Source: an uncultured Planctomycetota bacterium (GTDB lineage: Bacteria; Planctomycetota; Brocadiia; JAADGH01; CAYPFP01). From it: a stretch of DNA of 64,000 bases. The stretch covers positions 64,230-128,229 of the forward strand of contig CAYPFP010000003.1 in NCBI GenBank assembly GCA_964409935.1. Direction: 5' to 3'. Every line of letters starts with the position of its first letter. Positions within the stretch are counted from its first letter, which is position 1. Under the pieces are notes generated by a model that ran no database searches, had not been told where the DNA came from, and saw nothing but the letters and a program-made list of their open reading frames with translations. The translations under genes were made by a program, and so were the position numbers. Positions 16,773-37,557 of this stretch are shown piece after piece.

Positions 16773-17846
16773 CTAGCGGCATTGCCCATGCTTCTTGACC
16801 AGTTCCACGGCGTGACAGTAGTTTTGGAAGCTCACCGTGGGAGGCACGCTGTGGTCGGAGTGGAAGATGTAACCGCCGCCCTGTTTGGCCGCCTCGACCT
16901 TGCTGATCACCTCCTCCTCCACGTCCTTGCGGGTGCCGCTGAGCTTGCGGATGTCTATGTTCCCGAACAGCGTGATCTTGCCGGCGTACATCTTTTTCAG
17001 TTCGCGAACGTCCTGCCCGCACTTGGCCTCCAGGGGCTGGATGGCGTCGAACCCGGCCTCGATGAACTTGGGGATCAGCACGTCTATCTTGCCGCACGAA
17101 TGACAGATGAACTGCCGGCCCCGCTCGTGCTGGTAGTCGGCCAGCTTCTTGTGCGCCGGGAAGATGAGCCGGTCGTAGAGTCTGGGCGAAAAAAGCGTGG
17201 CGTTCCGGTAGCCCAGGTCGGCGGGCATGAACACCCCGTCGTAGTAGACGCCCTGCTCGTCGAGCAGCCTGTACAGCCCGATCGTGAGATCGGCGTATGT
17301 CATCATGACGCGCGCCACAAAATCGGGATCGTCCATCATGAGCGTCCATATCTGCGCCTGGCCGAAAACGGGCCACGCCAGTTCATACGGGTCGGCGTGT
17401 CCGAGCGCCACGAAGCGCCCCGTGGCGACGCACCGGTCGGCGGAGTCCTTGATGTCTTTGGGCAGCCGCTCCGGCTTTGCTACCAGCCGCGCGCAGTGCT
17501 CGTCCCATTCCTTCTGCCCTTTGATGACGTGGTCTATCCAGTGCGGCGTGAAGCCCGACTTCTTCGTGAAATGCTTGCGCGTAACGCCGTTGGCGTCCCG
17601 AAAAATCTTGTGGTCTGCGGTCTCCTCGATTGTCTGCGTCGGCAGTTGCAGGCTCAGGTCGAAGCCCCCGAAACTGGCGATGTCCATGCTGAAGTAATCG
17701 GTCACCGACATCTTCTCCGGCAATCCCTCCTTGCGCCAGCGGTCAACGGTCTCGCCCCACGGGCTTTCGTGCATCCCCACGCGGTCCGGCGCCCCGCCGC
17801 TCAGCGTCACCCGAATGCGCTCCCGCGACGTCATCTTGTCTGACAC
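16773..17846 (-). CDS. uroporphyrinogen decarboxylase (URO-D) family protein (MtaA/CmuA-like methyltransferase fold)
   Basis: ORF trimmed to GTG 17844-17846 nine nt downstream of AGGAG (alternative ATG at 17832-17834); ~360 aa with URO-D-like core; function not resolvable from sequence. Confidence 0.5.
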   Translation of the reverse strand: MSDKMTSRERIRVTLSGGAPDRVGMHESPWGETVDRWRKEGLPEKMSVTDYFSMDIASFGGFDLSLQLPTQTIEETADHKIFRDANGVTRKHFTKKSGFTPHWIDHVIKGQKEWDEHCARLVAKPERLPKDIKDSADRCVATGRFVALGHADPYELAWPVFGQAQIWTLMMDDPDFVARVMMTYADLTIGLYRLLDEQGVYYDGVFMPADLGYRNATLFSPRLYDRLIFPAHKKLADYQHERGRQFICHSCGKIDVLIPKFIEAGFDAIQPLEAKCGQDVRELKKMYAGKITLFGNIDIRKLSGTRKDVEEEVISKVEAAKQGGGYIFHSDHSVPPTVSFQNYCHAVELVKKHGQCR

Positions 17847-17952
17847 TGTCGTTTTCTCCTTCCGCGCCGCGACCGGCGCGATTGAACCATCATATGATGA
17901 CGACAAGGCGTCCCCTCGTCAACACAAATGCCGCCCCCGCCGCCCGAAAATC

Positions 17953-18137: not shown

Positions 18138-18569
18138 ATGGAACTTATTCGCCAGGACACCGACTACGCGATGCGGGCCATGACCTGCATGGGGCGAACG
18201 GCCGACGGCGGCAAGTCGGAAGACTCGTCCCGCGTGACCGCCGAAAGCCTTAGCGAGTCGCAACAGATCCCGCTGAGCTTCTGTCACAAGATCCTGCGCA
18301 AACTTGTCAGCGCCCGGCTTGCGGTCAGCCGTCCCGGACGGGCGGGCGGCTTCCGCCTTGCGCGCCGGCCCGCCAACATACGTCTCTTGGACATCGTGCA
18401 GGCGATCCAAGGCCCCGTCGCCGTCAGCACTTGTATGATGGACCTGGATGCGTGCCCGCGTCAGGCCGGCTGCCCGGTCTCCCGCAAGTGGCGCGCCCTC
18501 CAGAAGGGCATCTTTGAGTTCCTCAAGACGACGACGCTTGCCGACGTGGTGAAAGGCGAGAAGAAATGA
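18138..18569 (+). CDS. Rrf2-family Fe-S transcriptional regulator (NsrR-like, heads an hcp/flavodiiron operon)
   Basis: MELIRQDTDYAMRAM Rrf2 HTH N-terminus; three-Cys cluster site CMMDLDACPRQAGC; SD GGAGGGAGG; stop overlaps next gene start (ATGA). Confidence 0.75.
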   Translation: MELIRQDTDYAMRAMTCMGRTADGGKSEDSSRVTAESLSESQQIPLSFCHKILRKLVSARLAVSRPGRAGGFRLARRPANIRLLDIVQAIQGPVAVSTCMMDLDACPRQAGCPVSRKWRALQKGIFEFLKTTTLADVVKGEKK

Positions 18570-20648: not shown

Positions 20649-20660
20649 CAAACGCATATG

Positions 20661-20694
20661 GGGCGCGTCGGAGACGCGCCCCTTTTGTCGCGCA
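20661..20694 (+). terminator. intrinsic terminator GGGGCGCGTC-ggag-ACGCGCCCC-TTTT after flavodiiron gene
   Basis: Perfect 9-10 bp GC stem, 4-nt loop, T-tract; 13 nt after stop. Confidence 0.6.
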
Positions 20695-20736
20695 TATTAT
20701 GGAGTGGTTAAGTCTATATTATTTGGAGGACGAGGC

Positions 20737-22029: not shown

Positions 22030-22042
22030 CAGGAAACAAGAA

Positions 22043-22085
22043 GGGGACGCATCTCTCCCCGGAACAGGGAGTTGCGTCCCCTTTT
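22043..22085. terminator. bidirectional intrinsic terminator between convergent hcp and FGE-like genes
   Basis: GGGGACGC-atCTCCCcggaacaGGGAGtt-GCGTCCCC followed by TTTT on plus strand and T-rich run on minus strand. Confidence 0.55.
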
Positions 22086-22121
22086 GCCTTCGACGGCCCA
22101 GGCGGCAACGGCCACCAGCCG

Positions 22122-22967: not shown

Positions 22968-23821
22968 CACCGCTGAATAGTTCCGCCTTCGCCACCGCCT
23001 CCCCCGAAGACGGGATTAAGTCCTTCCGCCAAGGGCTCCCAGTTGCAGTCGTACTTCTTGGCGCGGGCGACCTCCCGCGCCTTTCTATACGTGTCGAAAC
23101 CGCTCGGCCGGACCACGAAGAAGATGAATGTATCGGCAGGTTTCTTCTCTCGAAGCATTTTGGCGAACTCGGAGCCTGGCGTGACCATTGACCCCGCGTC
23201 AGTGTACTCCCATACAACATAGATGCCGGCGCCCATCCGGAACGCTGATTTCACAGTCCCCACACGGTCCTTCTCGCAGAGCACGGGCCAGCCCCCCTTT
23301 TTCGTCGCCGTCGCCACGGGGGCGTTGAATTTGATCTCCACCTCCGCTTTCTTGACCGGCTCTATCTGGGCCATCTTGCGCTGGAGGTCCTCGGCCTCGG
23401 AGGTCAGCTCGGCGACCTCGCCCTCTGTCTGGGCCTTGCGCGCCGCCAGGTTCTGCGCCTCGCTTTGAAGTTTGGATACGGCGGCCTTGCCCTCCTCGAA
23501 TTTCCACTGGGCCTCCGCCGCCTTCTTCCTTTCCAGCGCAAGCTGCTGCTCGGCCGTGGCCGCGTCTCTTTCCGTCTGCGCCTGCTCCGCCTGCACTCGC
23601 CCCGTGTGCGCCTGAACCTCCCTGAGGCGGCGCCCAAGCTCCTCGGACTTCGCCTCGATCTCCTTCGTTTCCGCCACTACCCGCTCGCACTCCAGGAGAC
23701 CGCTGTTGTTGAGCAGCACCATCAACAGCACGAACACCAGCGCGCCGATCGTGTTGGCCAGAATGTCAAGGAAGGAGAAGTTGAAGATGCTGACTTCTTT
23801 CCTTCGACCGCCCAAGCTCAT
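22967..23821 (-). CDS. ExbD/TolR-like single-pass membrane protein with ~130-aa coiled coil and novel C-terminal domain
   Basis: N-terminus RKEVSIFNFSFLDILANTIGALVFVLLMVLL resembles ExbD TM signature; long EAQ-rich coiled coil; C-terminal domain FFVVRPSGFDTYRKAREVARAKKYDCNWEPL paralogous to next gene; GGAAGG SD. Confidence 0.5.
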   Translation of the reverse strand: MSLGGRRKEVSIFNFSFLDILANTIGALVFVLLMVLLNNSGLLECERVVAETKEIEAKSEELGRRLREVQAHTGRVQAEQAQTERDAATAEQQLALERKKAAEAQWKFEEGKAAVSKLQSEAQNLAARKAQTEGEVAELTSEAEDLQRKMAQIEPVKKAEVEIKFNAPVATATKKGGWPVLCEKDRVGTVKSAFRMGAGIYVVWEYTDAGSMVTPGSEFAKMLREKKPADTFIFFVVRPSGFDTYRKAREVARAKKYDCNWEPLAEGLNPVFGGGGGEGGTIQR

Positions 23822-23843
23822 ACACGCGCCTTCCGAGCCTCGC

Positions 23844-24638
23844 TCACTTGAAACTGATCTCCCAATCCGCGTTCACCGGCTCCCATCCCATCGTGACCTG
23901 AAGCGCCTTCGCCAGTTCGCGGGCCTTCTCGAAGGCATCGAGGCCGTCCGGGCGAACCAGGAAAACGACATATTCCTTCGTCCGTGAATTCTTGATTCGA
24001 ACCAGCATCTGGCGGAAAGCGGACTCCTGCGTGGCGAGGGACTTCTGCGGCGTCTCTTCCTTGGTCCGCTTGCCGGGGGAACCGTGGTTGATGACGCCGC
24101 TGGCCGCGCACTCGACGACGTTCGGGATCAGCTTTTTCTCCTCGAAATCCATCTTTAATATCTTCCCGCTGGATTCGTCCTTTCCGCGTTGCGACAGTTG
24201 CCCTTTGAGGACTTCTACCCTCCCCGCCGCCTTGTCCTTCTCCTCCTGCTGTTGCGCCTGCTCGGTTTCCAGCTTCTCGATACCGGCACGCGCCTGGGCC
24301 GTCTGTTCCTGCTGCTCCTTGATTTGCGCTTCCGCTCTTTGGGTCTGATCTCGGGCGCTCTGAACCAGCTCGGCGGCGGGGTTTTTCCGCTTCGTGTCGG
24401 CCAGGTTCTTCTCGGCCTGGGCCGCCTCTCCGGAGGCCTTCTCGACGGCGGTCTCCACACTGCTTTTGCGCGCTTTGGCCTCCTCAAACGCCTGTTTCGC
24501 CTGGAGCAGCCCCCGCGTGTCCGCCGTCGTGCACACCACCATGACCACGATGAAGATCAACGCCCCGACGGTGCACGCAAGAATGTCGAGGAAGGAGAAG
24601 CTGAATATCTCTATCTCGCGCGATCGTCGTCCGGCCAT
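23844..24638 (-). CDS. ExbD/TolR-like coiled-coil membrane protein (paralog of 22967..23821)
   Basis: N-terminus SREIEIFSFSFLDILACTVGALIFIVVMVV; coiled coil; C-terminal FLVRPDGLDAFEKARELAKALQVTMGWEPV; GAGGAG SD. Confidence 0.5.
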   Translation of the reverse strand: MAGRRSREIEIFSFSFLDILACTVGALIFIVVMVVCTTADTRGLLQAKQAFEEAKARKSSVETAVEKASGEAAQAEKNLADTKRKNPAAELVQSARDQTQRAEAQIKEQQEQTAQARAGIEKLETEQAQQQEEKDKAAGRVEVLKGQLSQRGKDESSGKILKMDFEEKKLIPNVVECAASGVINHGSPGKRTKEETPQKSLATQESAFRQMLVRIKNSRTKEYVVFLVRPDGLDAFEKARELAKALQVTMGWEPVNADWEISFK

Positions 24639-24710
24639 CTGTGCCGCTCCTCGGCCCGTTTCTCGGGGCCGATCGCTTGTTCATGCCGCGCCCCGCCGGG
24701 GGCGCCGTCC

Positions 24711-25631
24711 TTACGTGGCGGTCTTGTCCAGCTTCTCGGTCAACCGCTTCATGCCTTCCTCCTGAGCCGCGATAATCTTGTCAATCGCCTGGTTCATCCC
24801 GGCGTCGCCCGCCCCCGGCGCCTGCTCAAGCACCTTGTTGAGGAGGTTTTCGATGCAATAGTCCTTGATGTCTGCGAGCAGCCCCTCCTCCTGGCTCTGC
24901 AGGGCCGACATCGCGAACATCATGATCACGCTCATGACGAGGGACACCAGCGTGGTCTCGAAGGCGACGGCCAGGTTACGAGTCACGTCGTTCAGGGCCT
25001 CCTTCAGCTTGGCCATGTCGCCGGCGTGCTGCACCACCTGGTTGAAGTTGCCGATGGCCGCGCTGATCCCCACCACCGTCCCGATAAAGCCCAACACCGG
25101 CACGGCCCAGATGAAGACCTTGACGGTGGTGTAACTGCTGTCCACGCTCTCGGCGTCCAGCGCCGCCTGTTCGCTCAGGATGTCGTCCATCTTGGTCCCC
25201 GCGCCCACGGTCTTTCTCCGCATGAGCGCCCGCCAGATGCGGTTCACCAGCATCAGCGACTTCTGGCGCCCGTCGAGCTTGTTGATCCTTCGGATGATCT
25301 CCTGCGCCTTCTCCGAAGTGATGTACTCGCTGTGCTCGACGGGGAGCAGGCTCAGTCCGAAGGCCGTCCGCTGCTCCCGCACCTTGAATAGTTTCAGGCC
25401 CAGGATGGCCAGCCCCCAGAAGGCCAGGTACATCACCTCATAGGGTATCCACCCCCGCTGGCAGAAGAGGTTGTACATGTAGCCGTCCCATGCCGTCCTG
25501 AACAGAAGCAGCGGGATCAGCACGTAGAAGAGCACCGTGGCCGCCAGCCCCAATCCCGCCGCCAGCAGCAGGTTGACCGACGTTCCCGTGCGTTGGACGG
25601 AAACCTCGTCCTTTTGTTCTTTTGTTTCCAT
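24711..25631 (-). CDS. MotA/TolQ/ExbB-family proton channel protein
   Basis: Three TM helices plus motifs VPVLGFIGTVVGISAAIGNF and AVAFETTLVSLVMSVIMMF typical of ExbB/TolQ; GGAGGAAG SD. Confidence 0.65.
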   Translation of the reverse strand: METKEQKDEVSVQRTGTSVNLLLAAGLGLAATVLFYVLIPLLLFRTAWDGYMYNLFCQRGWIPYEVMYLAFWGLAILGLKLFKVREQRTAFGLSLLPVEHSEYITSEKAQEIIRRINKLDGRQKSLMLVNRIWRALMRRKTVGAGTKMDDILSEQAALDAESVDSSYTTVKVFIWAVPVLGFIGTVVGISAAIGNFNQVVQHAGDMAKLKEALNDVTRNLAVAFETTLVSLVMSVIMMFAMSALQSQEEGLLADIKDYCIENLLNKVLEQAPGAGDAGMNQAIDKIIAAQEEGMKRLTEKLDKTAT

Positions 25632-25667
25632 GATCGTGCTTCCTCCAGACCATCAACATTCGGCGCG

Positions 25668-28600
25668 TCAGTCGGATGAGTAGACCGCCACGTCGTCAAA
25701 GGCAACCTGGATCGGGGCATCGCACACGAAAAAGCCCACCGCCCCCTCCGAGAACGATTTGTCCGTCAGCGTCGCCACCTCGTAGTTGTTGATCATGAAC
25801 TTCATGGCGGGGCCGTAACAGACGACCTCGAGCGTGTTCTCCTGCCGCAGACCTCTGCGGAGATGTTTGGTCGCGGTCTCTTTGACAAGCTCGAACACAA
25901 CGCCGCCCTTCGTGCCGAATATCTTGCACGCCCCGGCTGAAGAGATGAGGAAGTAGTAGGCGCTCAAGGTCTGGCGCGTGGCCCGGAAGCATAGTCCGTA
26001 ATAGCCCGCGCTCGACCCGCTTGTCTGTTGCGCGTCGGCGCGAAAGGCGAAATCCTTGAAGGTCTTGTCGGGATAGAAGGCCCAGTCCTGTCCTCGAACC
26101 ACTTCCACAATATACTTGCCGCTTCGGACTTCTACGCGCAGCAGATCGTCGTTTCGCTGGGTCCAACCGGCGGCGCGCCCGCTGAAATCTTCGCGCAGCG
26201 CGAGCGTTCGCGGCCTGGGGACGGACATCTTCTTGGAGGGCTGCTTCTCCGGGGCTGCCGGCGTCGTCGTCGCTGCCTTGGTGGTCTTCTCCGGCGCGGG
26301 GGTGGCGGGCGCAGGCGGGGCGGGCGCGGGCGGGGTTTCGGCCTTCTTCGGCTCCGGCTTCTCGGCCTCTGGCGGAGGCTGCTTCGCGGCGGGCGGCTTC
26401 AGGCTGTATACCGCCACGGCGTCCACGGCTATCTCCAGCGGCAGCTTGAAGGCCCAGAAGCCGATGTTCCCGCTATCGGAGGAGGCGTCCGAAATCTCCT
26501 TGATGAACACGCCGTTGACGTACAGCCGCAGACGATCGCCCTGACACCGCGCTTCGAGAACGTTGTAGACGTCCGGCCCCGTCTTGACGGCCGCCGACTT
26601 CGTTGTCTCGGCCAGCACCTTGGTCTCTCCGCCGAAGGCCTTGATCACCGCGTAGGTGCCGGCGACGTCCTCGCCTTCGGTGGCGATGAGGAAGCGGTAT
26701 CCTTCGCCCTCGGCATCTCCCCGGAGCAGCAGCCCGAAATAGGCCGCCTTCATGTCGCTCACGCACCGCACGCGCGCCAGCATCACGAAATCGTCGAACT
26801 CCTTCTGCGCCAGACCGCAATAGCCGGGCATCCGCTGCAGGATGTGGTACTCGCCTTCCTGGATCATGGCCTTCATCTCTTCGGTGTCCTGCAGGGGCCA
26901 CTCCGTCTTTCCCGAATCGAAGGTTTCGTCCAGCAGGGCCTCGCCGATCACCGCCCGGCTCTCGCCGGACATGCACTCGATCAGGGGAGGCTGCTTGCTC
27001 TGGGAGGGCTTGCTTTCCGCCCGCTCCCTGTCCGGCCTGGCGGCGGCCCTCGGGGGCGGCGCTTTCGGCGACGGTGGGGCTTTCTGCGTGGCTTCGCCGC
27101 GCGCCAGCGCGACCATGGTTTGCGCCTTGCGGACGTCGTCTTCTCCGGATGTCCAGCTCAACGCCTCCGTGTAAGCGGCCGCCGCCTTATCGAACTGCGC
27201 CTCTTTGCGGTATTCGTCCCCTGTGGATAGGAAATGCGAGTACGCCGTCTCGCTCAGGGAGGCCGCCCCTTCGCGCGCCAGGTGCACCAGGTCGTTCTCC
27301 CCGAATTCGGGCGCGACTTGCGCCGCCAGGTTGTAGAGGTTTCTGGCCTCCGCGAACTGCGCATGGGCAACCATCCGCCCGGCGTCCAGAATCCGGTTTC
27401 GCGTGAGTTTCTCGTATTGGGATATCTTCGCGACCCACTGGTCGGCGGTCTCGGCTTGTTTGGCGTCGCTGCGCGCCAGGGCGGCCATCGCGACCGCCTC
27501 TTGCAGCCGTCCCTGAGTCGCGAGTTTCTTGACCTCCGCCACGAGGTCGGCCGGCGCCGGCGCGGCCCCTTCGGTTCCCGTCTTTGGCTTTCCATGTCCC
27601 CGCGCTACGAAAAAGGCGGCAGCCGCCAGCGCCGCCACGACGACGACGGCGGCCACGGCAATGGGCATGATGCGCGCGGCGGGCTTCTCGACCTTGCGCG
27701 GGTAACGTTTCTGGAGGACGTCGGCGATGATCTGCCCGACGGCTTCATCCGCGAGGCCCGTGGACCTGGCCTGGATGCGCCAATCGGCGATCCGCGCCTC
27801 GCTCGGCCGCCCCGCCGCCAGGATAGCCTCTCCCATCTTCCGCACCAGGTCCGCCTTGATCTCTCTCAAGCGCCGGTCGTAATACGCCCTCTCTTGGCGG
27901 TCGCTCAGTTGCGACTGCGCGCGCCGCACCTCCGCGACCAGTTGAGCCGCAATCGGGCCGTGCTCGGGCGAGTCCGTAAAACGCTGCAGTCTTACCAGTT
28001 GCGCCTGCGCGGCAGACCTGACCTGCTCGCTCGATGCGCTGAATTCGGGCAGGTTCAGCAACTGGTAGAAATTGGGCGGGCGGTCGGCCGACACGACCCC
28101 GATCCAGTCCCGGTACACGTCGCGTAGCAACGGTCTTTCCACCGCCGGACTTGCCGCCCGCTGCGCCGGTTTGCCTTGCAGCCGGTCCAGGACGACCTGG
28201 AGTCTTGCCGCCACGTCCCTGGCGCTGGAGAAGCGACGTTCCGGCGACTTGTGCAGCATCCGCTCCAGTATCTCCACCACGTCGTCGGGCGTCGAGGGGG
28301 CGAAGTTCCGTATGGGCATGGGATGTTTTTCGACGTGCGCGCGCATGATCTCCAGCGCGTTGCGGCCCGTCACCGGCAGGCGTCCCGCCAGCATCTCGTA
28401 GTACATCACCCCCAGCGCGTAGATGTCCGAACTCGGCGTTACCACGCGCCCTTCGCACTGTTCCGGCGACATGTACAACGGCGTGCCCAGCGGCTCGCCC
28501 GTCATTGTGACCTTGCGCCCTTCCGGAAAGTCCGAAAGGTTCTTCGACAGGCCGAAATCAGCCACCTTCACCGTCCCGTCCTTCGCCAACAGCACGTTCG

Positions 28601-29018
28601 ACGGCTTGATGTCCCGATGCACGATCCTCTTCTCGTGCGCGAAGGCCAGCGCCAGCGCTATGTCGCGCACGATCCGCGTGGCCTCCGTCAACGGCATTCG
28701 TCCGCGCTTCTCCAGCGCTTCGGCCAGCGACGCACCCTCCACGAGCTGCATCTCGACGAAGGCGATCCCCTGATCTTCTCCGGCCCGGTAGACGGTGACG
28801 ATATTGGGGTGATCCAGTTGGGCGGCGTTCTGCGCCTCCCGCAGGAACCGCTCGGAGAACGTCGGGTGCAGTTCGACCAGTTGTTCGGGCAGCACCTTGA
28901 CGGCCACGGCCCGCTTCAAACGGACATTCATGGCCCGGTACACGACGCCCATCGCGCCCCGCCCCAGCAATGCTTCGATGAAACAGTCGCCTAGCTGTTT
29001 GCCGACCAGATCGCCCAC
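25668..29018 (-). CDS. Ser/Thr protein kinase with J-domain-like module, TM helix, TPR-like region and two C-terminal DUF1080/LamG-like domains
   Basis: GTG start with GAGAGGG SD; kinase motifs GRGAMGVVY, HRDIKPSNVLL, DFGLSK, GTPLYMSPEQ; TM IMPIAVAAVVVVAALAAAAFFVA; repeated C-terminal jellyroll ending ...VDAVAVYS / ...DDVAVYS. Confidence 0.8.
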   Translation of the reverse strand: MGDLVGKQLGDCFIEALLGRGAMGVVYRAMNVRLKRAVAVKVLPEQLVELHPTFSERFLREAQNAAQLDHPNIVTVYRAGEDQGIAFVEMQLVEGASLAEALEKRGRMPLTEATRIVRDIALALAFAHEKRIVHRDIKPSNVLLAKDGTVKVADFGLSKNLSDFPEGRKVTMTGEPLGTPLYMSPEQCEGRVVTPSSDIYALGVMYYEMLAGRLPVTGRNALEIMRAHVEKHPMPIRNFAPSTPDDVVEILERMLHKSPERRFSSARDVAARLQVVLDRLQGKPAQRAASPAVERPLLRDVYRDWIGVVSADRPPNFYQLLNLPEFSASSEQVRSAAQAQLVRLQRFTDSPEHGPIAAQLVAEVRRAQSQLSDRQERAYYDRRLREIKADLVRKMGEAILAAGRPSEARIADWRIQARSTGLADEAVGQIIADVLQKRYPRKVEKPAARIMPIAVAAVVVVAALAAAAFFVARGHGKPKTGTEGAAPAPADLVAEVKKLATQGRLQEAVAMAALARSDAKQAETADQWVAKISQYEKLTRNRILDAGRMVAHAQFAEARNLYNLAAQVAPEFGENDLVHLAREGAASLSETAYSHFLSTGDEYRKEAQFDKAAAAYTEALSWTSGEDDVRKAQTMVALARGEATQKAPPSPKAPPPRAAARPDRERAESKPSQSKQPPLIECMSGESRAVIGEALLDETFDSGKTEWPLQDTEEMKAMIQEGEYHILQRMPGYCGLAQKEFDDFVMLARVRCVSDMKAAYFGLLLRGDAEGEGYRFLIATEGEDVAGTYAVIKAFGGETKVLAETTKSAAVKTGPDVYNVLEARCQGDRLRLYVNGVFIKEISDASSDSGNIGFWAFKLPLEIAVDAVAVYSLKPPAAKQPPPEAEKPEPKKAETPPAPAPPAPATPAPEKTTKAATTTPAAPEKQPSKKMSVPRPRTLALREDFSGRAAGWTQRNDDLLRVEVRSGKYIVEVVRGQDWAFYPDKTFKDFAFRADAQQTSGSSAGYYGLCFRATRQTLSAYYFLISSAGACKIFGTKGGVVFELVKETATKHLRRGLRQENTLEVVCYGPAMKFMINNYEVATLTDKSFSEGAVGFFVCDAPIQVAFDDVAVYSSD

Positions 29019-29156
29019 CGTCGCGCCCTCTCAGACACTCCGCGCCTCTACGCCCGATTCGTCCGCCGGTCCGACCGCCTGATCCGGATGCGCCGCCGAG
29101 TCTTGCCCCTCGTTCCGGCTCGTATCGTAACAGGACCATGGGGCGTTCTCAAGCCT

Positions 29157-30518
29157 CTACGGCTTCACCGAATACACCACAAAATCGTCGAATGCCGCCT
29201 TCGTGCCCTTGCCTTGGACCAGCGTCCCCACACGCCCCTTCAGGAAGTTGGCGTCGGTTACGGTCGCGGCATGGATGAAAGTCCCATCTATGAAAAACCG
29301 AAGCGAGTCGCCTTTGCACAGGGCCTCAAGAACGTATTCCTTGCCCCGTGCACTGGCTTTTCCCGCCTTTGGGGCCTCGGCAAGCGTGGCTGTCGGCCCT
29401 TCCTTGCCCCAAAGTCGCACCTGCCCGCCCTTCTCGGTAATCACCAGTTGGTAGCCCCTCCACTCATAGCCTTTCACTCCGGAAGGCACCCTCAGCAACA
29501 TCCCGCATGACCGGGGCTTGCCGTCCGGATGCTCCAAACACGTCGTTCTGACCGAAACGACAAAGTCCTCGAAATTTCCCCAGGCGTCCCCAGGGAATCC
29601 CCCGATACACTCCACTATAAACCGTCCGCCCGCGATGGATCGTATGCCATGGTGTGTCCGGCGAATCTCTCCGTCGGCCATATGATTCCACCGCTCGACG
29701 TGCAAGGGAACACCCATCGCCTCCCGCAACTCCCGCGCCACAGGCTGGGGCAACGTGGATTTGTATGGCGGCAGGGCGTCCTTCTTCACGGAGAACACGA
29801 TCAAGTCGTCAAAGCGCGCCGTGAAGCTTTCCTTTCCAGCCGCCACACACGCAAATCGCCCCCGCACTGGTAGATCGGTCTGCACTTCCGCCGTTGCCGC
29901 GTCGCTGGTACGACGCGCCGCGTCGCTGGTACGACGCGCCGCGCCGTTGAGCCACCCCTTGACCCGGTCCCCCACGCATCTCCCTTCGACGATGTTCCTC
30001 TCCTCCATCCCGAATTTCATCAGGGCCGGCGAAAGCCTCTCATACACTCGATGCAGTCGCCGGTCCCCTCCGTGCAATTCCACCATCCTCCCAAAGCGAA
30101 GCGCCAGTTCAAGAGCGGCGTTTCCGTCCTCCCGGAACTTGACGGCGGCGGTCGCCGTGGGGTCCCCGGCGCCCGAAACGGCGACCTGGAAGATGAAGTC
30201 GTCGAACCACCGTTCGAGACGAGCCAGGGTGTAGGACCTCTCCCTCTCGTCCACCAGGAAATACGCGCCGTCCCGGATGAGGCAAGACGCAGGCCCCGTG
30301 GGAATGATGGGCCAGCCGTGCACGCCCCCCGGGGGGGCGTTATCATCGAATGGTTCGTACAGCAGCAGCTTGTCCGCCAGCTTCTGGTTTTCCGGCTGGA
30401 GACGCCGTCGCAGTTCCTCAACCTTCGGTCCGACCGCCGCCTGCGGCAACTCTCTCTCCTGCGCGACCGCCGGTCCGACCGCCGGTCCCTGCCCCCCCCG
30501 CAAGGCCAAGCCTCTCAT
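29157..30518 (-). CDS. protein with two DUF1080/LamG-like domains; start uncertain, probably C-terminal part of a frameshifted larger gene; carries tandem REP-A (ARRTSDAARRTSDA)
   Basis: Tool ORF 29157..30674 has junk N-terminus overlapping upstream ORF; first plausible ATG M53; domains end AFDDFVVYSVKP like kinase C-terminus; C8 homopolymer in overlap. Confidence 0.45.
   Translation of the reverse strand: MRGLALRGGQGPAVGPAVAQERELPQAAVGPKVEELRRRLQPENQKLADKLLLYEPFDDNAPPGGVHGWPIIPTGPASCLIRDGAYFLVDERERSYTLARLERWFDDFIFQVAVSGAGDPTATAAVKFREDGNAALELALRFGRMVELHGGDRRLHRVYERLSPALMKFGMEERNIVEGRCVGDRVKGWLNGAARRTSDAARRTSDAATAEVQTDLPVRGRFACVAAGKESFTARFDDLIVFSVKKDALPPYKSTLPQPVARELREAMGVPLHVERWNHMADGEIRRTHHGIRSIAGGRFIVECIGGFPGDAWGNFEDFVVSVRTTCLEHPDGKPRSCGMLLRVPSGVKGYEWRGYQLVITEKGGQVRLWGKEGPTATLAEAPKAGKASARGKEYVLEALCKGDSLRFFIDGTFIHAATVTDANFLKGRVGTLVQGKGTKAAFDDFVVYSVKP
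29889..29930. repeat. REP-A, 2 exact tandem copies, in-frame in DUF1080 gene
   Basis: Encodes ARRTSDAARRTSDA, same peptide as at 2966. Confidence 0.85.
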
Positions 30519-31647
30519 GTATGAGCGGCACGTTGAGCAGCAGAATCCTGAACTCGCCCCCTGCCCCGCTCCCCACATAGTAGACCAGCCTAGTCCCGTC
30601 AGGCGACCACGCATGATGGCCGCGCACCCCGCTGCCTTCCATCGTGAGCTGACGCTTCGCCGTCCCGGCCTCATCCATCAGCCAGATATTGTTCATGTGA
30701 TAGAACGAGATTATCCGTCCGTCCGGCGACCATGCCGGACACGCGCCCACATTGGCCTTCATGAGAACGGCGCAATCTCCGTCAATGCGCTGCACCTGGA
30801 TGCCTGAAGACTCCTGCGCCCAATACGCGACAACGGCCTCCCTGGGCGAAGCCGCCGGACAGGTTTCCGACCCGTTGGTATGAGTCAACTGCCTTGCATT
30901 CCTGCCGTCCAGATCCGCAACCCACAGGTCCCAACGCCCGCCCTTCCGACTCATATAGCAGATGCGCCCCCCGTCGCTCGTAAACGTCGGCCAAACGGCT
31001 GAATCGGGCACGCACGAGGACAGTTGACGCGTTTCAAGGTCCAATATCCGAATGGCCATGTCGTGCGACCATATGGCCGCCTTGTCGCCAAGGGGGGACA
31101 CGGCCGGCTTGCGCGCCCGCGGAGAATGCCACGGCGCAATGGCCTTCGTGGCCACGCTAAGAACCAGCGCCGTGTCCCCGTGGTACTCGGCTGCGCCGGG
31201 TCGCGGCTCAAGCTCCACCAGAATGCTATTCCCATCGCGAAACCAGGCAAGCCGCCCCACAAGCGTGTTAGGCGGGCAGGCCATGGGTATGCGCGTCAGC
31301 AAGCTGGCAAAGTCCATCTGGCCTGGCGGGGGCAGCGCCGTATCAGGAACCGGCGCAGGCGGAGGCGGGGCTTCCGGCGCAGGCGGCGGCGGGGCCGCTT
31401 CCGGCGCGGGCGGCGCCCGGACCAGCATCATCGTGCGCGCAATCGAAAGCTCCAGCAGCATCTCCACCGCCTGCTTCTGGTAGGCCCCGATCTGGTACTG
31501 CTTTACGATGCGCATCCGCTCTTTCGCCGCCCGCTCGATGACGTCGGGGTCCCCCTCGTCCTTCGCGATGCCCAGCAATTGATGCCCCGCCGGCGGCCTC
31601 GACGGCGCCTCAACCCCAAGCCATTCCCTGTAGAAATCCCTGCCCAT
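30418..31647 (-). CDS. J-domain-like N-terminal module + Pro-rich linker + PD40/TolB-like beta-propeller; last ~30 codons look like out-of-frame read-through
   Basis: MGRDFYREWLGVEAPSRPPAGHQLLGIAKDEGDPDVIERAAKERMRIVKQYQIGAYQKQAVEMLLELS; repeats WSPDGRIISFY, WSPDGTRLVYY; tail LGLAGGAGTGGRTGGRAGERVAAGGGRTEG; overlaps next ORF by >=100 nt. Confidence 0.5.
   Translation of the reverse strand: MGRDFYREWLGVEAPSRPPAGHQLLGIAKDEGDPDVIERAAKERMRIVKQYQIGAYQKQAVEMLLELSIARTMMLVRAPPAPEAAPPPPAPEAPPPPAPVPDTALPPPGQMDFASLLTRIPMACPPNTLVGRLAWFRDGNSILVELEPRPGAAEYHGDTALVLSVATKAIAPWHSPRARKPAVSPLGDKAAIWSHDMAIRILDLETRQLSSCVPDSAVWPTFTSDGGRICYMSRKGGRWDLWVADLDGRNARQLTHTNGSETCPAASPREAVVAYWAQESSGIQVQRIDGDCAVLMKANVGACPAWSPDGRIISFYHMNNIWLMDEAGTAKRQLTMEGSGVRGHHAWSPDGTRLVYYVGSGAGGEFRILLLNVPLIHERLGLAGGAGTGGRTGGRAGERVAAGGGRTEG
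31413..31545. repeat. ~133-nt near-identical segment (92-nt perfect core) shared with 34607..34739; encodes the J-like module
   Basis: Manual alignment of the two gene 5' regions. Confidence 0.8.
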
Positions 31648-31662
31648 GCTTCGCGCGACCCC

Positions 31663-33723
31663 CTATTGTTTCGCCGCAAAGACGGCGATCTCCATGAACA
31701 TTGCAGCCACATTCGTTCCCGGAGGAGCCAGCAACCTAAGCCCGATCTTCTGCCTGGACGGACTGGACACCTTGCCCCTCCAGAGAAGGTCTCCGTCCTG
31801 CCAGACCTCAACATTCTCACCGATTGCGCAAATCTGAGCCTTTCTAAACCCGGAGACCCACCCCATGCCCTTGAAGGTTAGAGTACCGGTATTCAGCTTT
31901 CTCTCAGTGAAGCTCGATTTCTGGTCTCCCAGGCGAATGTCTACATCGTGGTCGTTGCTCCCGGCGAACATCCATCGCACCACAATGTCCGCATCCGCCT
32001 GGGGAACAGGTGCTGCCAAACGAACCGCAAAAGCCAAGATGAAGTCCGTGCATTCGCCTGTAAAGTTCGCTTCGAGGGTGCTCTGTCCCGTGGAGCGTGA
32101 GCGGAGGATGACAGGTGAAGAGGTGGAAGTTCCCGGCGCAGTACTGCCCCCTTCCACCTTCCACATCCCCGAGCCGCTGCCTGCCATAAGCCCGTCATAG
32201 GCTATGAGGTCGCCCGCTCGGCGCAGGTTCTCAGCGGAAAGCAGGCGCCGCGCACGCCCCAATTGGCCCGCCTGCAATGTCGGGCTGGGCGTCGTCCCGG
32301 CAGGCGCGCCGGTTCCTGTTCGTGTCGCCGACGCCGGCGGGGGGCCAAACGGTAGTTTGAAGGCCGTCCCCAGCGCGATGGAGCGAACCTCGTGGCTCGA
32401 GTCCGTCGCGCCGATTCGCTGCAACTTCTCTCTGGCCGCCTCTTGCCGGAAGCCGGCCAGGGCATGGCATATCGCCGCCCTGACCTCCGGCAGCAGCTCT
32501 GTGTCCACGCAGGTGAGCAGCGCATCCATCGCCGCCTGTGTACCGTGTTCGCCCAGCGACAGGGCGGCCCGCGCTCGAACGCGCCATTCCTTGTCCGACT
32601 TCATGGACTTCGCCAACGCCGCCGTTGCGGCGCGGGCCTCGTGTTCCCGCAGGAAGGCCGCGGCCAGGTATCGTTTCACATCGGACACGTTCGATTCGAG
32701 GATCGAGCACAAGGCCGAAGGGTCCCCCTGCGCGTGCTCCATCCCATACCGTCCCGCCGCCCAGATCCGCACCTTGTCAAAGCCGGCCTCCATCTTCTCC
32801 GGCGCCGGTTCCCGATCCAGGAACAAGACGCAAACGCCAAGACGCCGCACAAACATCTTCTTGTCGGAGCCGGTCGCGCCGAACGGCGAGACCAAGAGGC
32901 AACGCCGGTCGGTCTCTTCCAGCGCCGCTTTCCTTCCCTCCCAGTATGTGCGGAATGCCTGTAACGCCTCGCTGCGTGGCGTTGTCATCGAGACAGGAAA
33001 TTGCAGGTTCCGGGCCACCTGCCAGCACATGCATGGCAAGCCCTTCTCCGGACCTTGCGATCCGCTTCGAGGGGGACGCGAGGTCGCGTAGCCAAGCAGG
33101 ACATCAACAGCCTCCACCCTCGCCACACCCTCGAGTGCGCGCTCCGCCCAATATGACCACACACCCCTTGCGGGATTCGTGGCGTCAAGCGACACGACGA
33201 GAATCTCAAACGACGGCTCGTCCCCCAGGGCCGCAAGCGCCCCAAGTTCCACTGCCGCGAGGTACGAGCGGACCCAGTGTTCTTCCTTGCGCAGGCTTTC
33301 GATCAACGCCTTCGCCGCCTCGCTCATCGCGGGGTAGGAGGTCTTGAACGTGACCGGAGGTATGGGGATGAACTCGCCGGGGAATTCCACGGCGGACATG
33401 GGGGGGAGCGTGGTGGGCGCCGCCGGCGCGGGCACAGTCGCCGGAACCGGCGCAGGCGGGGCCGCATCGGGAACCGGACCGGGCGGAGGAGGAGGCGGCG
33501 CTTCCGGCGCGGGCGTCGCCAGGGCGACCACCTTCCTGTGGAGTTCCTCCAGCAGTTCCCTGCCTGACGCCAGACACGCGCAGTCTTTGTAACGCTCGTC
33601 TACCGTCAACTGTCTCAGGGCCACGATGGCGCCGCTCAAGTCCGTCTGCGCCTGCCGGCGGCAGGCCTCGATCTTCTGCGCCCCCTCCGCCTCCAGAGCG
33701 TATCGCTCCCGCTCCTTGCGCAA
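31663..33723 (-). CDS. HEAT-repeat + C-terminal DUF1080/LamG-like domain protein; TTG start as called by ORF tool, more likely the C-terminal part of a frameshifted giant gene
   Basis: Start codon is TTG at the printed sequence; frame stays open a further 84 nt upstream; HEAT/PBS-lyase-like repeats (LPEVRAAICHALAGF, SHEVRSIALGTAF); jellyroll ending IGLRLLAPPGTNVAAMFMEIAVFA. Confidence 0.45.
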   Translation of the reverse strand: MRKERERYALEAEGAQKIEACRRQAQTDLSGAIVALRQLTVDERYKDCACLASGRELLEELHRKVVALATPAPEAPPPPPPGPVPDAAPPAPVPATVPAPAAPTTLPPMSAVEFPGEFIPIPPVTFKTSYPAMSEAAKALIESLRKEEHWVRSYLAAVELGALAALGDEPSFEILVVSLDATNPARGVWSYWAERALEGVARVEAVDVLLGYATSRPPRSGSQGPEKGLPCMCWQVARNLQFPVSMTTPRSEALQAFRTYWEGRKAALEETDRRCLLVSPFGATGSDKKMFVRRLGVCVLFLDREPAPEKMEAGFDKVRIWAAGRYGMEHAQGDPSALCSILESNVSDVKRYLAAAFLREHEARAATAALAKSMKSDKEWRVRARAALSLGEHGTQAAMDALLTCVDTELLPEVRAAICHALAGFRQEAAREKLQRIGATDSSHEVRSIALGTAFKLPFGPPPASATRTGTGAPAGTTPSPTLQAGQLGRARRLLSAENLRRAGDLIAYDGLMAGSGSGMWKVEGGSTAPGTSTSSPVILRSRSTGQSTLEANFTGECTDFILAFAVRLAAPVPQADADIVVRWMFAGSNDHDVDIRLGDQKSSFTERKLNTGTLTFKGMGWVSGFRKAQICAIGENVEVWQDGDLLWRGKVSSPSRQKIGLRLLAPPGTNVAAMFMEIAVFAAKQ

Positions 33724-35032
33724 TCGGGCCTCCCACCCCCCGACCCGCAGGTTTTGCGGGAATTCGTCCCACGCGCTCGGCGACGAACTCGCCGATACGC
33801 TGGCCGGTCATTGGAAAACCCATGGCGCGCAACTCCTCTACCCGCGCACAAGCCGGTGGACGCGCGCGGCCGGTCGCCAGCTCGTCGGCCCTTTTCTTCG
33901 TCTCCTCCAGTCGAGTCAACGCGGCGGCCTGCACCTCCACCTCGACGATCTTCCTCTTCCTCTGCGCCTCCTTCCCATACTTCGACTCCGGCGCGCAATC
34001 CAGCACGGCCTGGTAACGCCTCACTATCTCCGCGTACTCGCCCGGATTCCTGGAATGGTATTGCGCCGCCTCGGCGTGGAGGTCTTTCGCCTCGGCCAGC
34101 CGCTCGTATTCCCTCCTTGCGCGCGCCCCTCGCAAACCTGCCGCCGTCAGCGCCGGCAGTTCCGACAACTCCTCGGCGGCATCCCTGTATTGCTCGCGTT
34201 CGGCCAGCCGCTGCGCCCGGTCCAGCGCCGGCCAGACCTCCTGTTCCCGCCACCACTGCCCGAAACCCGCCGTCACCATCGTCATCAGGACGACGCCCGC
34301 TGCCACGATCGCCATGTCCCGGCGGCGGCGGTGCCCGCGTTTCCACACGGCGTTGTCCACGATCTTGCGCGCCAGTTCCCCATCAATGCCCATCCGCGCC
34401 GCATGAGCCAGCAGCCGTTCCGTCAAGGCCGACCGCACCCCGCCCTGCATCAGCAGGAAGTCGCAGATCTCGCCGAAGGCCGCGGCCGCCGCGCCTCTGC
34501 CCGCCGTTTCGGGCCTCGTCTCCGGCGCCGCCTCCATCATGACGATCTCTTCGGCTTGGACCGGCGCCGCCCGGGCCGCCCGCGCCGCCGCCTCCCGCGC
34601 CCGGACCAGCATCATCGTGCGCGCAATCGAAAGCTCCAGCAGCATCTCCACCGCCTGCTTCTGGTAGGCCCCGATCTGGTACTGCTTCACGATGCGCATC
34701 CGATCCTTCGTCGCCCGCTCGATGACGGCGACATCTGTTTCCTCCGGACGCACGCCGAGCAGTTCCTCATGCGAAGGGGGCCTCTTGCCGGGCGGGATTC
34801 CCAGCCACTGCGTGTAGAAATCTTCTTGTTGGGGCGCGCGAGGCTTAGGGGCTTCCGGTTTGGGGACCGTGTGGAGCGGCGAGGGGACGGTGAGATTCGC
34901 CGCGCAGCGCGGACACCGCGTTGTCCGGCCAACCACCTCTCTTATGGCCGTAAGCACATGCCCGCACCGAGGACACTTGAACTGGAACGTGTCGTTCATG
35001 GATGTCCGCCTGTCTCCAGGACAACGCGGCAC
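33206..35032 (-). CDS. Zn-ribbon + J-domain-like module + TM helix + TPR/coiled-coil protein; 3' ~170-215 codons are out-of-frame low-complexity read-through over the next gene
   Basis: FKCPRCGHVLTAIREVVGRTTRCPRCAANL zinc ribbon; J-like module identical over ~30 aa to 30418..31647 gene; TM MAIVAAGVVLMTMVTAGFGQWW; tail GRGVGGPIAQGAGAIRSGGGGG... is compositional junk; 517-nt out-of-frame overlap with next ORF. Confidence 0.45.
   Translation of the reverse strand: MPRCPGDRRTSMNDTFQFKCPRCGHVLTAIREVVGRTTRCPRCAANLTVPSPLHTVPKPEAPKPRAPQQEDFYTQWLGIPPGKRPPSHEELLGVRPEETDVAVIERATKDRMRIVKQYQIGAYQKQAVEMLLELSIARTMMLVRAREAAARAARAAPVQAEEIVMMEAAPETRPETAGRGAAAAAFGEICDFLLMQGGVRSALTERLLAHAARMGIDGELARKIVDNAVWKRGHRRRRDMAIVAAGVVLMTMVTAGFGQWWREQEVWPALDRAQRLAEREQYRDAAEELSELPALTAAGLRGARARREYERLAEAKDLHAEAAQYHSRNPGEYAEIVRRYQAVLDCAPESKYGKEAQRKRKIVEVEVQAAALTRLEETKKRADELATGRARPPACARVEELRAMGFPMTGQRIGEFVAERVGRIPAKPAGRGVGGPIAQGAGAIRSGGGGGAEDRGLPPAGADGLERRHRGPETVDGRRALQRLRVSGVRQGTAGGTPQEGGRPGDARAGSAASSSARSGSRCGPACAGSGDCARAGGAHHAPPHVRRGIPRRVHPHTSGHVQDLLPRDERGGEGVDRKPAQGRTLGPLVPRGSGTWGACGPGGRAVV
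34607..34739. repeat. partner of 31413..31545 duplicated segment
   Basis: Manual alignment. Confidence 0.8.
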
Positions 35033-35208
35033 GCACGTACAGTGATTGTATTATATTACGGGATTTGCACAGGCACAAGCGGACGTTTTCTTGAGGTGTG
35101 CGGCGGCAGATGTCCCCGTTCACGTAGTGCCAGGCACGCGCCAAGCGTCTGGCGCGAGCCAGGCACTATGTATGCGGCTGCCCCCCACGGATGCGGTCCC
35201 CAGACCGG

Positions 35209-36702
35209 CTATTCGAGAATAATCGTCGCTACAGCCTCCTGGGCCTCTTCGACCTCCCGTTCCGAAAGCCCGCTTTCGCGCACGATTTCGGTGGAGGCTA
35301 CCTTCCCCGTGGACAGCTCCCTGGCGCCGACGGCGAACCGGCCGTCCGCCGTATACTCATATGTGACCTCCACCAGCGCCCCCTTGGGCAGCCCGACCGA
35401 GAAGTCCGAAATGACGCATTCGCCTATCTTTATGCAGGCGCTGGGGTCGGGGGCCTCTCCTTCCAGAATGCCGATGCGTATCTCGCGCTCGCCCTCCCGT
35501 ATCGTGCGAAACATCTTGGTCACCGAACACGGCAGCGGCGAGTTCTTGCGAATCATGACGAGGTTCTTGTCGCGGTCTTTCTCGCGAACGATGATCCCCA
35601 AGCTGTGGGAGTTGACGTTGGTGACCTTCTTCTGGAACATGCCCCGGAGAATGGCCCCATGGATGGCCGCGCCATGCGCAACGATCTCGTCTACCGGCAG
35701 CGAGTTCACCGGCTCTTTCTTCGTCAGTTCGCGCAGCATCTGCGCCACCATGGGCATTCGGGTCGAGCCGCCCACCAGCAGCACCTTGTCCACGTCCTTC
35801 CACGTCAGGCTGGCGTCATCGAGCACCATCTCCGTCGAGAGCTTGGTGTGTCCGAGCAGGTGGGCCGTGATGCGCTCGAAAATCTCGCGGGTGACGTCCA
35901 CCGAGATGCGGTGACCGGCGTGCGAGCACGGGATGCGCACACGCGACCGCGTGCTCAGCGTCTTCTTGGCCTCCTCGACCTCGTTGTATAGCGCCTGGAA
36001 GGACTGCGCGTCGTCGCGGGGATCGGCTCCGCACTGGCGCAGGAAGGCGTCGGCGACGTAGTTGGCCAGGGCCATGTCCCAGTCCTTGCCTCCCAGCCTC
36101 ACATCGCCGCCCGTGGCCAGCATCCGGATGCTGTCCGGCTCGATGCGGATCAACGTGACGTCGAAGGTGCCTCCGCCCAGGTCGTAAACGAGCGCCGTCT
36201 GCGGCTCGTCGCCCTTGATCCCCATCCCGTACGCCAGCGCCGCCGCCGTAGGCTCGTTGATGATGTCTACCACATTCAAGCCGGCGATTCGCCCCGCGTC
36301 CTGGGTGGCCTTGCGGCGCGTGTCGTCGAAAAAGGCCGGCACCGTAATCACCACGTCCTGAAACGGGCCGACTTGCGCCTCGGCGTCTTGTTTCAGTTTC
36401 ATCAGGATGAACGCCGATAGCGTCTCGGGCGAGTACTCCTTGCCCCGGAACTGGAATCGGAAACTCGGATTCCCCATCTCGCGCTTGATGCACTGAACCA
36501 CGCGGTCCGGATCAACCAGGGCAACGCGTTTGGCCTCCCGCCCCACCACGATGGCCTCGTCCTCGAACAGAATCACCGACGGCGTCGCAAAGTCGCCCTC
36601 CCGGTTGCGGATCGTGACCGGCTTGCCGTACACGTCCACGTAGGCGATCTCCGAGAACGTCGTGCCGAGGTCTATGCCCAGAACCGTCCCGTTTGGCGGC
36701 AT
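35209..36702 (-). CDS. Hsp70-family ATPase (non-canonical, 497 aa: full NBD + truncated substrate-binding domain)
   Basis: GIDLGTTFSEIAY, DLGGGTFDVTLI, VLLVGGSTRMPMV Hsp70 phosphate/adenosine motifs; AAGGAGG SD; first gene after promoter. Confidence 0.75.
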   Translation of the reverse strand: MPPNGTVLGIDLGTTFSEIAYVDVYGKPVTIRNREGDFATPSVILFEDEAIVVGREAKRVALVDPDRVVQCIKREMGNPSFRFQFRGKEYSPETLSAFILMKLKQDAEAQVGPFQDVVITVPAFFDDTRRKATQDAGRIAGLNVVDIINEPTAAALAYGMGIKGDEPQTALVYDLGGGTFDVTLIRIEPDSIRMLATGGDVRLGGKDWDMALANYVADAFLRQCGADPRDDAQSFQALYNEVEEAKKTLSTRSRVRIPCSHAGHRISVDVTREIFERITAHLLGHTKLSTEMVLDDASLTWKDVDKVLLVGGSTRMPMVAQMLRELTKKEPVNSLPVDEIVAHGAAIHGAILRGMFQKKVTNVNSHSLGIIVREKDRDKNLVMIRKNSPLPCSVTKMFRTIREGEREIRIGILEGEAPDPSACIKIGECVISDFSVGLPKGALVEVTYEYTADGRFAVGARELSTGKVASTEIVRESGLSEREVEEAQEAVATIILE

Positions 36703-36862: not shown

Positions 36863-37312
36863 TTATTCGCCGCACCGCAGCAGGCCGAATCCCGTGCGGG
36901 CGTCCTGTACCCGAACGGCCTGAAGGCCCGTGATCTCGATGAGGAGTATCTCCAGGATATGCCATGTGACGATGCCGGCGCGGATGCATCCGCTTCGGCT
37001 CTGGGTGCCCCGCCCGAACGCGGCGTGCATGTGCAGAATCGGTCTGCCTTTCTCGTCGGGGAAGATGGTGCCGACGGCGGTTACTTCGTGCACCCCCTGA
37101 AGCGCCGCAATCATCGGAACGGGCGGCAGTTTGCGCCCGTCCTCGGGTCCCACCACGAACTTGCTGCCGTCTTGCGCGCCGCCGACCATGACGGCAAGGC
37201 CCGATTGCACCTTCTTTTCGGCCGCGAACTTTTCCAGCGTCTCCGGCATGGGGTCGCCATGTTCGAGTCGAATGGCGAAGACCCGGCCCACGGCGCCTTC
37301 GGAATATTGCAT
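36863..37312 (-). CDS. DUF296 (PPC) domain protein
   Basis: ORF 36863..37480 trimmed to ATG 37310-37312 (upstream part runs through the tRNA); HMHAAFGRG...GCIRAGIVTWH motif region typical of DUF296. Confidence 0.5.
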   Translation of the reverse strand: MQYSEGAVGRVFAIRLEHGDPMPETLEKFAAEKKVQSGLAVMVGGAQDGSKFVVGPEDGRKLPPVPMIAALQGVHEVTAVGTIFPDEKGRPILHMHAAFGRGTQSRSGCIRAGIVTWHILEILLIEITGLQAVRVQDARTGFGLLRCGE

Positions 37313-37372
37313 GTCGCGGCACTCCAGCCCGGCGGACCGAGTCGGCCGGCCGGAATAAGCGTTGGGGCGAGA

Positions 37373-37449
37373 TGGCGCGCCCGCCGAGACTCGAACTCGG
37401 AACCAACGGGTTCGAAGCCCGCTACTCTGTCCAATTGAGCTACAGGCGC
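37373..37449 (-). tRNA. tRNA-Arg (anticodon TCG), 77 nt, CCA encoded
   Basis: Manual fold: acceptor GCGCCTG/CGGGCGC (7 bp, one G-U), D-arm GCTC-AATTGGACA-GAGT, anticodon arm GCGGG-CTTCGAA-CCCGT (U33, anticodon UCG, A37), variable TGGTT, T-arm CCGAG-TTCGAGT-CTCGG, discriminator G, CCA. Confidence 0.8.
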
Positions 37450-37557
37450 GCTGTTTTTTGCAACGCTCGTTAAACGGCATCCTCTGCCGCTTACGTCGTC
37501 CTTACTCTATCTTATCGTCCAGCGTCAAGTCAAGCGCATTGCCCGATCACTTTTGTG

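Follow-up and report, generated by a model that had tools for sequence, protein, structure and literature searches.

Two out-of-frame gene pairs downstream of an Hsp70-like gene in an uncultured planctomycete read best as two frame-broken modular genes of a J-like-domain family

In a 64-kb stretch of DNA from an uncultured Planctomycetota bacterium (contig CAYPFP010000003.1; the whole stretch is referred to below as the window), four open reading frames (ORFs), A to D, form two same-strand pairs, A/B and C/D, whose members overlap out of frame by 518 and 257 nucleotides (nt), respectively. All four, together with their neighbours, are carried by the minus strand, and the window is ~65% G+C throughout. 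The overlaps had been pointed out in an earlier reading of the DNA, made without database searches (the sequence-only reading), and were confirmed at the coordinates given there (Table 1). In each pair one base is in surplus (or two are missing), so that the frame is thrown by +1, and the same +1-type correction fits both. Deletion of one G from the G6 tract in the A/B overlap and of one G from the G8 tract in the C/D overlap, the shift that had been suggested as a check, gave uninterrupted, stop-free products of 1,122 amino acids (aa) for AB and 829 aa for CD. The coding signal also hops frames within each pair, and the proposal that a frameshift would fuse each into one protein is borne out.

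A frame plot of GC content at third codon positions (GC3) showed that the upstream frame loses, and the downstream frame gains, the coding signature within a few tens of bases of each tract. Real genes of the window have GC3 values of 0.75-0.89. In the tail of A (~188 codons) the GC content at codon positions 1/2/3 is 0.82/0.72/0.53 and in the tail of C it is 0.80/0.88/0.52, while the first ~58 codons of the D frame, upstream of G8, are likewise non-coding-like (0.47/0.76/0.69). These values agree with the sequence-only reading, which had taken the tail of A for low-complexity read-through, and the tail of C and the first ~50 codons of D for junk. It had also noticed that B has only a TTG start in a frame that stays open further upstream: the B frame is open to the TGA at 33810-33808, and ATG, GTG and TTG are absent before the TTG at 33723. 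Since B-frame coding signal starts ahead of any start codon in that frame, A and B are more readily understood as parts of a single gene. The direct passage of coding signal from upstream into downstream frame argues for single-gene ancestry of both pairs, as does the 518-nt overlap, which is unlike the other junctions checked; the remaining same-strand overlaps checked in the window are trivial, with the downstream start adjoining the upstream stop. The best reading of each pair is a single ancestral gene with a break in its frame.

The breaks were mapped with codon log-odds trained on 20 confident genes of the window, by scanning for the best switch point. The switch point favoured for C/D is 30523, with a 100:1 support interval of 30529..30491 that includes the G8 tract. 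This tract sits in the linker that joins the last propeller strand (EFRILLLNVPL) to the first DUF1080-like domain of D. G8 is a good candidate for the C/D break site, as the sequence-only reading had supposed, because the chance that the sole run of at least 8 in the window would fall in a ~40-nt interval is a few percent. Of the tract coordinates given in that reading, those of G6 (33736-33741) were exact, whereas G8 is at 30492-30499, 1 nt off the 30493-30500 reported.

It is improbable, in our estimate, that the members of a pair are instead separate overlapping genes, chiefly C and D, with C truly ending at 30418, D starting at ATG 30518 or TTG 30449, and G8 incidental. Such an arrangement would require a same-strand overlap of 32-101 nt (C/D) or 518 nt (A/B) unlike every other junction checked, and would leave the occurrence of the window's only G8 run in the C/D overlap to a chance of a few percent. 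Nor does it sit well with the GC3 of 0.52 in the tail of C, or with the lack of a start codon where the B-frame signal begins. It does, on the other hand, fit the start of the D-frame codon signal at ~30521, right at ATG 30518, the position of the C/D break in a linker between complete domains, and the deposited start of D at TTG 30449, with AGGAG 6 nt upstream; moreover, PD40 and DUF1080 are combined in no known protein among the matches listed.

The A/B break probably lies elsewhere than at the nearby tract. The best switch point is ~33770, in the non-homopolymer sequence GTGGGAC (33772-33766) next to GAATTC, and an AAAA run (33752-33755) adjoins the lower edge of the break interval. The ten A-frame codons from 33769 to 33742 (GGA CGA ATT CCC GCA AAA CCT GCG GGT CGG) score -6.5, compared to +4.0 for the B-frame reading of the same stretch (W D E F P Q N L R V). 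Among 12,561 ten-codon windows read in their true frame, 0.46% score as badly, and among 2,959 such windows from the J-like gene family 0.20% do. The choice of G6 as the A/B site in the sequence-only reading is not supported by these scores: with the higher indel rate of a six-base run allowed for, G6 is still an unlikely break site, and a lesion at GTGGGAC near 33770 is likelier. By position, G8 is inside its break interval, 30529..30491, and G6 is outside the other, 33782..33756. For future scans, a homopolymer nearby need not be the break site, as the codon-likelihood change-point moved the A/B break ~30 nt off G6.

Table 1. Positions in the 64-kb window of the four ORFs, their putative coding parts, the junctions and the associated features.
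Feature	Coordinates	Strand	Description
ORF A	33206..35032	-	608 aa, GTG start; likelier start ATG 34999
ORF B	31663..33723	-	686 aa, TTG start
ORF C	30418..31647	-	409 aa, ATG start
ORF D	29157..30674	-	505 aa, ATG start
Gene A, putative coding part	33772..34999	-	Zn-ribbon, J-like domain without HPD, one membrane helix, helical region; GC3 0.82
A-frame read-through tail	33206..33771	-	~188 codons, G/R/A-rich, over the start of B; composition non-coding
Gene B, putative coding part	31663..33771	-	helical region, Pro/Ala linker, HEAT repeats, unassigned beta-rich C-terminal domain
B as deposited		-	686 aa from TTG 33723, GGGAGG motif 5 nt upstream
Gene C, putative coding part	30500..31647	-	J-like domain, Pro/Ala linker, PD40 beta-propeller; without membrane segment
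C-frame tail after G8	30418..30491	-	~24 codons, Gly/Arg-rich, plus stop
Gene D, putative coding part	29157..30491	-	linker and two DUF1080-like domains paralogous to those of kinase K
D as deposited		-	430 aa from TTG 30449, AGGAG 6 nt upstream; ATG 30518 is an alternative start
A-to-B break interval	33756..33782	-	100:1 codon-likelihood support; homopolymers inside of 3 nt at most
G6 tract	33736..33741	-	15-45 nt downstream of the inferred A/B break; disfavoured as site
G8 tract	30492-30499	-	only G/C run of at least 8 in the 64 kb; inside the C-to-D break interval
Tandem repeat	30464..30488	-	perfect 12-nt GGACCGGCGGTC x2.1; GPAV-GPAV in D frame, directly after G8
Tandem duplication	29896..29943	-	perfect 21 nt in D (AARRTSD-AARRTSD), in a loop of the first DUF1080-like domain
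CD fused at G8			predicted junction peptide LGLAGGQGPAVG
AB fused at ~33770			predicted junction peptide AERVDEFPQNLR
AB fused at G6			predicted junction peptide PAGRGWEARLR
Kinase K	25668..29018	-	intact: Ser/Thr kinase, J-like domain, membrane helix, helical region, two DUF1080 domains
Hsp70-like ATPase	35209..36702	-	497 aa; Pfam HSP70 positions 1-512 of 599; C-terminal lid region missing

The domain content of the fused products is consistent with single-gene ancestry. Along fused AB are found a Zn-ribbon, a J-like domain, a membrane helix (residues 240-258 of the fused protein), a helical region, HEAT repeats and an unassigned C-terminal domain; the order in CD is a J-like domain, a PD40 propeller and two DUF1080-like domains. 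The PD40 match in CD is clear, while the second domain of D matches PF06439 at 22.2 bits (E = 1.7e-4), under the cut-off of 26.8. The neighbouring kinase K ends in a pair of domains to which those of D are paralogous (BLASTP 9e-12, 5e-9 and 4e-7); K passes PF06439 at 45.8 bits, and the paralogy supports a single ancestral gene for CD. For AB the corresponding argument is that B has no export signal, whereas A brings a membrane helix, the single one predicted. The C-terminal 193 aa of B gave no Pfam match at E <= 5 and did not resemble the DUF1080 domains of either K or D. The sequence-only reading had expected both fusions to share the J-like and DUF1080 architecture of the kinase, which fits CD but not AB; it had further described the products as surface-exposed sensors, and this does not hold for CD, in which neither a membrane segment nor an export signal is predicted. 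A single-sequence AlphaFold2 model of fused CD was unusable (mean predicted local distance difference test score, pLDDT, 35.7).

The J-like domain, which spans ~80 residues and is common to A, C and K, has ~4,000 relatives (3,952) with very varied C-terminal domains. In one of these (P0157) a single chain combines it with a membrane helix, TPR and an FGE-sulfatase domain, and in two others (P0132 and P0136) two J-like domains are joined to a membrane helix and a beta-sandwich. These three relatives share the N-terminal module of A and have J-like domain, membrane helix and C-terminal domain in one chain, which also favours single-gene ancestry. With the PF00226 profile, the domain of A gave no match at E <= 1 and that of K only E = 0.0031 (18 bits, under the cut-off of 27.8), while a relative (P0128) matched at 4.1e-11. 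We regard the J-like domain as a divergent DnaJ domain. The likeness to the DnaJ family and its Hsp70 lies in the order of the genes, A, C and K following an Hsp70-like gene, and in the relatives that match PF00226; it differs in that the local Hsp70 has no C-terminal lid and that no HPD motif was found in the J-like domains of A, C or K when their sequences were read directly.

The J-like domains of C and A are 73% identical. Their C-terminal halves are covered by a 91-nt exact repeat (31413-31503 / 34597-34687), within a 146-nt repeat at 93% identity (31401-31546 / 34585-34730). Elsewhere the two genes are unrelated, a pattern suggestive of recent gene conversion between the paralogues A and C. 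The 91-nt repeat would break short-read assemblies at its positions.

To search for an uninterrupted form, several collections were used. Among 5.8 billion proteins, fused AB found no more than B itself and a single weak match; D alone returned only D itself, and for fused CD only PD40 propeller proteins were listed. The word-indexed search with fused CD missed C, although C is a cluster representative in that collection (P0003) and 100% identical over ~380 aa, so negatives for low-complexity or repeat-rich queries are to be read with caution. An exhaustive HMMER search with fused AB against 1.84 billion representatives yielded J-like and HEAT matches, none of them crossing the junction. An Hsp70-anchored scan covered 185,579 species genomes. 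Identity reached 48% in the best match, the nearest relatives were in Planctomycetaceae metagenome-assembled genomes (MAGs; 45-49%), and no AB or CD relatives were found in the flanks of the Hsp70 matches. Metagenome scans with protein B and with the exact junction pattern, at tract lengths 4-14, found nothing. The orthologues with one uninterrupted ORF that the sequence-only reading had recommended looking for were thus not obtained at either junction in these protein, genome and metagenome searches. The proteins of the deposited contig (139,026 bp) are singletons in a 15-billion-protein collection. The one independent assembly recovered, a 7,654-bp Logan contig (SRR11582140_18477) built from publicly available reads of the organism, matches the window at 18546-26199 with 1 mismatch and no gaps, and ends inside K, short of both junctions.

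We hypothesize that the breaks are true mutations of the sampled population, recent in origin and caused by unprogrammed slippage or indels, an explanation that we favour while giving it slightly less than an even chance. A+B and C+D would each have been one ancestral modular gene of the J-like-domain family, with C/D broken at the G8 tract and A/B in non-repetitive sequence near 33770. As the DNA stands, A would be translated into its out-of-frame tail of ~188 codons and C would end in a Gly/Arg tail of ~25 residues. B and D would be made only via the internal TTG starts at 33723 and 30449, each preceded by a Shine-Dalgarno-like motif of the sort used by about half of the genes in the window, and B made from TTG 33723 would lack the anchor in the membrane that would otherwise put it outside the cytoplasm. 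An ordinary indel of this kind, fixed or polymorphic, was absent from the sequence-only reading, and is at least as likely as the sequencing error or phase variation considered there.

The deposited sequence shows that the frames break, where they break and that the fused reading is continuous; we infer that the breaks are in the DNA of the organism rather than in the consensus. Should the consensus be at fault, AB and CD would be intact in the organism and the contig would carry a one-base overcall (or two-base undercall) at G8 together with an indel near 33770 or at G6; we consider this unlikely, though a good deal less so than the other alternatives discussed here. Consistent with such errors, the downstream ORFs are intact, codon-biased and free of secondary lesions, G8 is the longest G/C run and the most error-prone tract of the window, and the proteins of the 139-kb source contig are singletons. 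In addition, 9 of the 20 G/C runs of at least 6 are within 30325-35186, so that tract-dependent errors would cluster at this locus. Several observations argue that the breaks are real. No further broken gene was found among the ~40 ORFs examined in the window, other suspicious places proving to be normal genes, and no break was detected alongside any of the other 18 G/C runs of at least 6, of which five are 7-mers and thirteen 6-mers. The Logan assembly agrees over 7.65 kb without an indel, the reads being accurate enough for a clean k-mer assembly. The A/B break is probably outside any homopolymer, and the perfect 12-nt and 21-nt tandems at the locus are products of replication slippage rather than typical read errors.

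Other points weigh against real mutations. The reading frames of B (686 codons) and D (~445 codons) have stayed open and keep their codon bias, so that the break would have to be very recent, or B and D separately expressed, and a consensus error explains their state just as well. G8 is exactly where homopolymer miscalls arise, the Logan contig, which stops inside K, covers neither junction, and no orthologue in the searches made shows the uninterrupted state. For C/D, an independent D from ATG 30518 or TTG 30449 is a less likely alternative, and the codon scores slightly favour an onset of the D frame at ~30523.

The locus resembles the frameshift-split genes found at homopolymers in draft genomes and MAGs, with a same-strand out-of-frame overlap, a frame hop at or near a G run, a low-complexity upstream tail and a one-base edit that restores a single modular protein. 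It differs from them in that the A/B break is probably outside a homopolymer, and in that B and D have a Shine-Dalgarno-like motif and a TTG, and may still be expressed. The frame breaks are lesions of an ordinary kind, and nothing points to a deliberate genetic switch.

Two kinds of switch were nevertheless considered, and taken together they are unlikely. The first is slipped-strand phase variation, in which the length of G8 (and perhaps of G6) would reversibly toggle the C-terminal modules. G8 is within the length range of known poly-G switches, such as those at Neisseria and Campylobacter loci. The break at a domain boundary would suit a switch, as would the adjoining perfect 12-nt repeat, which shows local slippage. 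However, the number and length of the tracts equal the expectation from random codon choice for Gly/Pro-rich sequence: in AB+CD, G/C runs of at least 6, 7 and 8 number 8, 3 and 1, compared to 6.5-7.7, 2.4-3.3 and 0.9-1.6 expected from 2,000 synonymous reshufflings. Since the counts match, the tracts are most simply a by-product of Gly/Pro-rich linkers, not maintained beyond expectation. In the window as a whole, runs of at least 6 are depleted (20 observed, ~57 under a Markov model). Phase variation is further disfavoured because the A/B break is probably not at a tract, CD has no predicted membrane or export signal, and tract-length variants were not found in the metagenome scans. The poly-G contingency loci of surface genes in Neisseria, Haemophilus and Campylobacter share with this locus an intragenic tract, here G8, whose length sets the reading frame. 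They differ from it in that G8 is mid-gene at a domain linker and not near the 5' end, the tracts here are not enriched, CD is not predicted to be exported and no length variants were observed. We therefore think it very unlikely that the tract toggles reversibly.

The second is programmed +1 ribosomal frameshifting or transcriptional slippage, by which the fused proteins would be made from the present sequence; of all the explanations weighed here it seems to us the most remote. The same +1 shift is required at both breaks, the downstream ORFs are preserved, and GGG-G permits re-pairing of tRNA-Gly in the +1 frame. Known +1 frameshifting of the prfB type has the same shift and a G-rich Shine-Dalgarno-like stretch at the site, but its in-frame stop, slow codon and slippery codon of the CUU-U type are absent at the sites here. 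In detail, neither site has a zero-frame stop, the upstream frames continuing for ~25 (C) and ~188 (A) codons; no hungry codon occurs at G8, and the rare GGA and CGA after the A/B break allow no +1 tRNA re-pairing. Downstream RNA folding is no better than that of shuffles at both sites (z -1.0 to -1.6), no Rfam frameshift element is present at the locus, the Rfam scan of the window finding only a tRNA, and G8 is unlike the A/T run of at least 9 that is typical of RNA polymerase slippage. Were G8 a reversible slipped-strand or recoding switch, which we judge to be very improbable, it would control whether DUF1080 modules are attached to a cytoplasmic J-like/propeller adaptor that belongs to an Hsp70-linked signalling cluster, and to our knowledge no switch of the contingency type would have been reported before from a planctomycete-like bacterium.

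The four ORFs belong to a cluster (22122-36702) that comprises, in the direction of transcription, the lidless Hsp70-like gene, AB, CD, K, a MotA/ExbB-like gene, genes for two unknown proteins and an FGE-sulfatase-like gene. CD starts 15 nt after the stop of B, and K has its own promoter-like site. A search of the literature for this Hsp70/J-like/kinase arrangement or for run SRR11582140 found nothing specific. Outside the cluster, a tRNA-Arg(TCG) gene (37373-37449, minus strand) overlaps the nominal 5' end of ORF 36863..37480, which encodes a PCC-domain protein, so the true start of this ORF should be further downstream. The longest homopolymer in the window is an A9 run (18058-18066) between the divergent genes 16773..17906 (minus strand) and 18138..18569 (plus strand).

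Within the cluster, GC3 is 0.75-0.77 in the coding parts of B, C and D, ~3 standard deviations below the 17 other genes of the window (0.80-0.89), whereas A (0.82) and K (0.83) are normal; GGG accounts for 38% of Gly codons in the locus and 22% in the window. Long-term decay was rejected as the cause of the low GC3 of B, C and D, as that much neutral change would bring many stops and none is present. The 21-nt duplication in D is taken to have arisen very recently by in-frame slippage. On the coding strand at 30325-30337, a C7 run adjoins a G6 run (CCCCCCCGGGGGG, APPGG in D); these are in frame at present and make a second potentially slippage-prone spot in D. A 13-mer, GGCGGTCGGACCG, occurs exactly three times on the minus strand (29067-29079, 30426-30438 and 30471-30483), compared to a chance expectation of 0.68 with one mismatch allowed. 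Two of the copies flank the annotated TTG start of D, and the third is between the promoter-like site at 29152..29124 and the start of the kinase gene, where the match extends to 17 identical bases (19/20 over 29060-29079 versus 30464-30483). Its unit, GACCG-G-CGGTC, is a 5-1-5 palindrome and could be an operator or a small dispersed repeat.

The significance of the locus depends on which explanation applies, and wider interest would arise only if phase variation or recoding, which are unlikely, were at work. Consensus errors would call for no more than a corrected annotation, in which the four deposited ORFs are merged into one gene of 1,111-1,122 aa and one of 829 aa. Real breaks would mean that, of the three J-like-domain genes that follow a lidless Hsp70 in tandem, two have recently decayed or split, a small datum on the speed at which lineage-specific modular families turn over.

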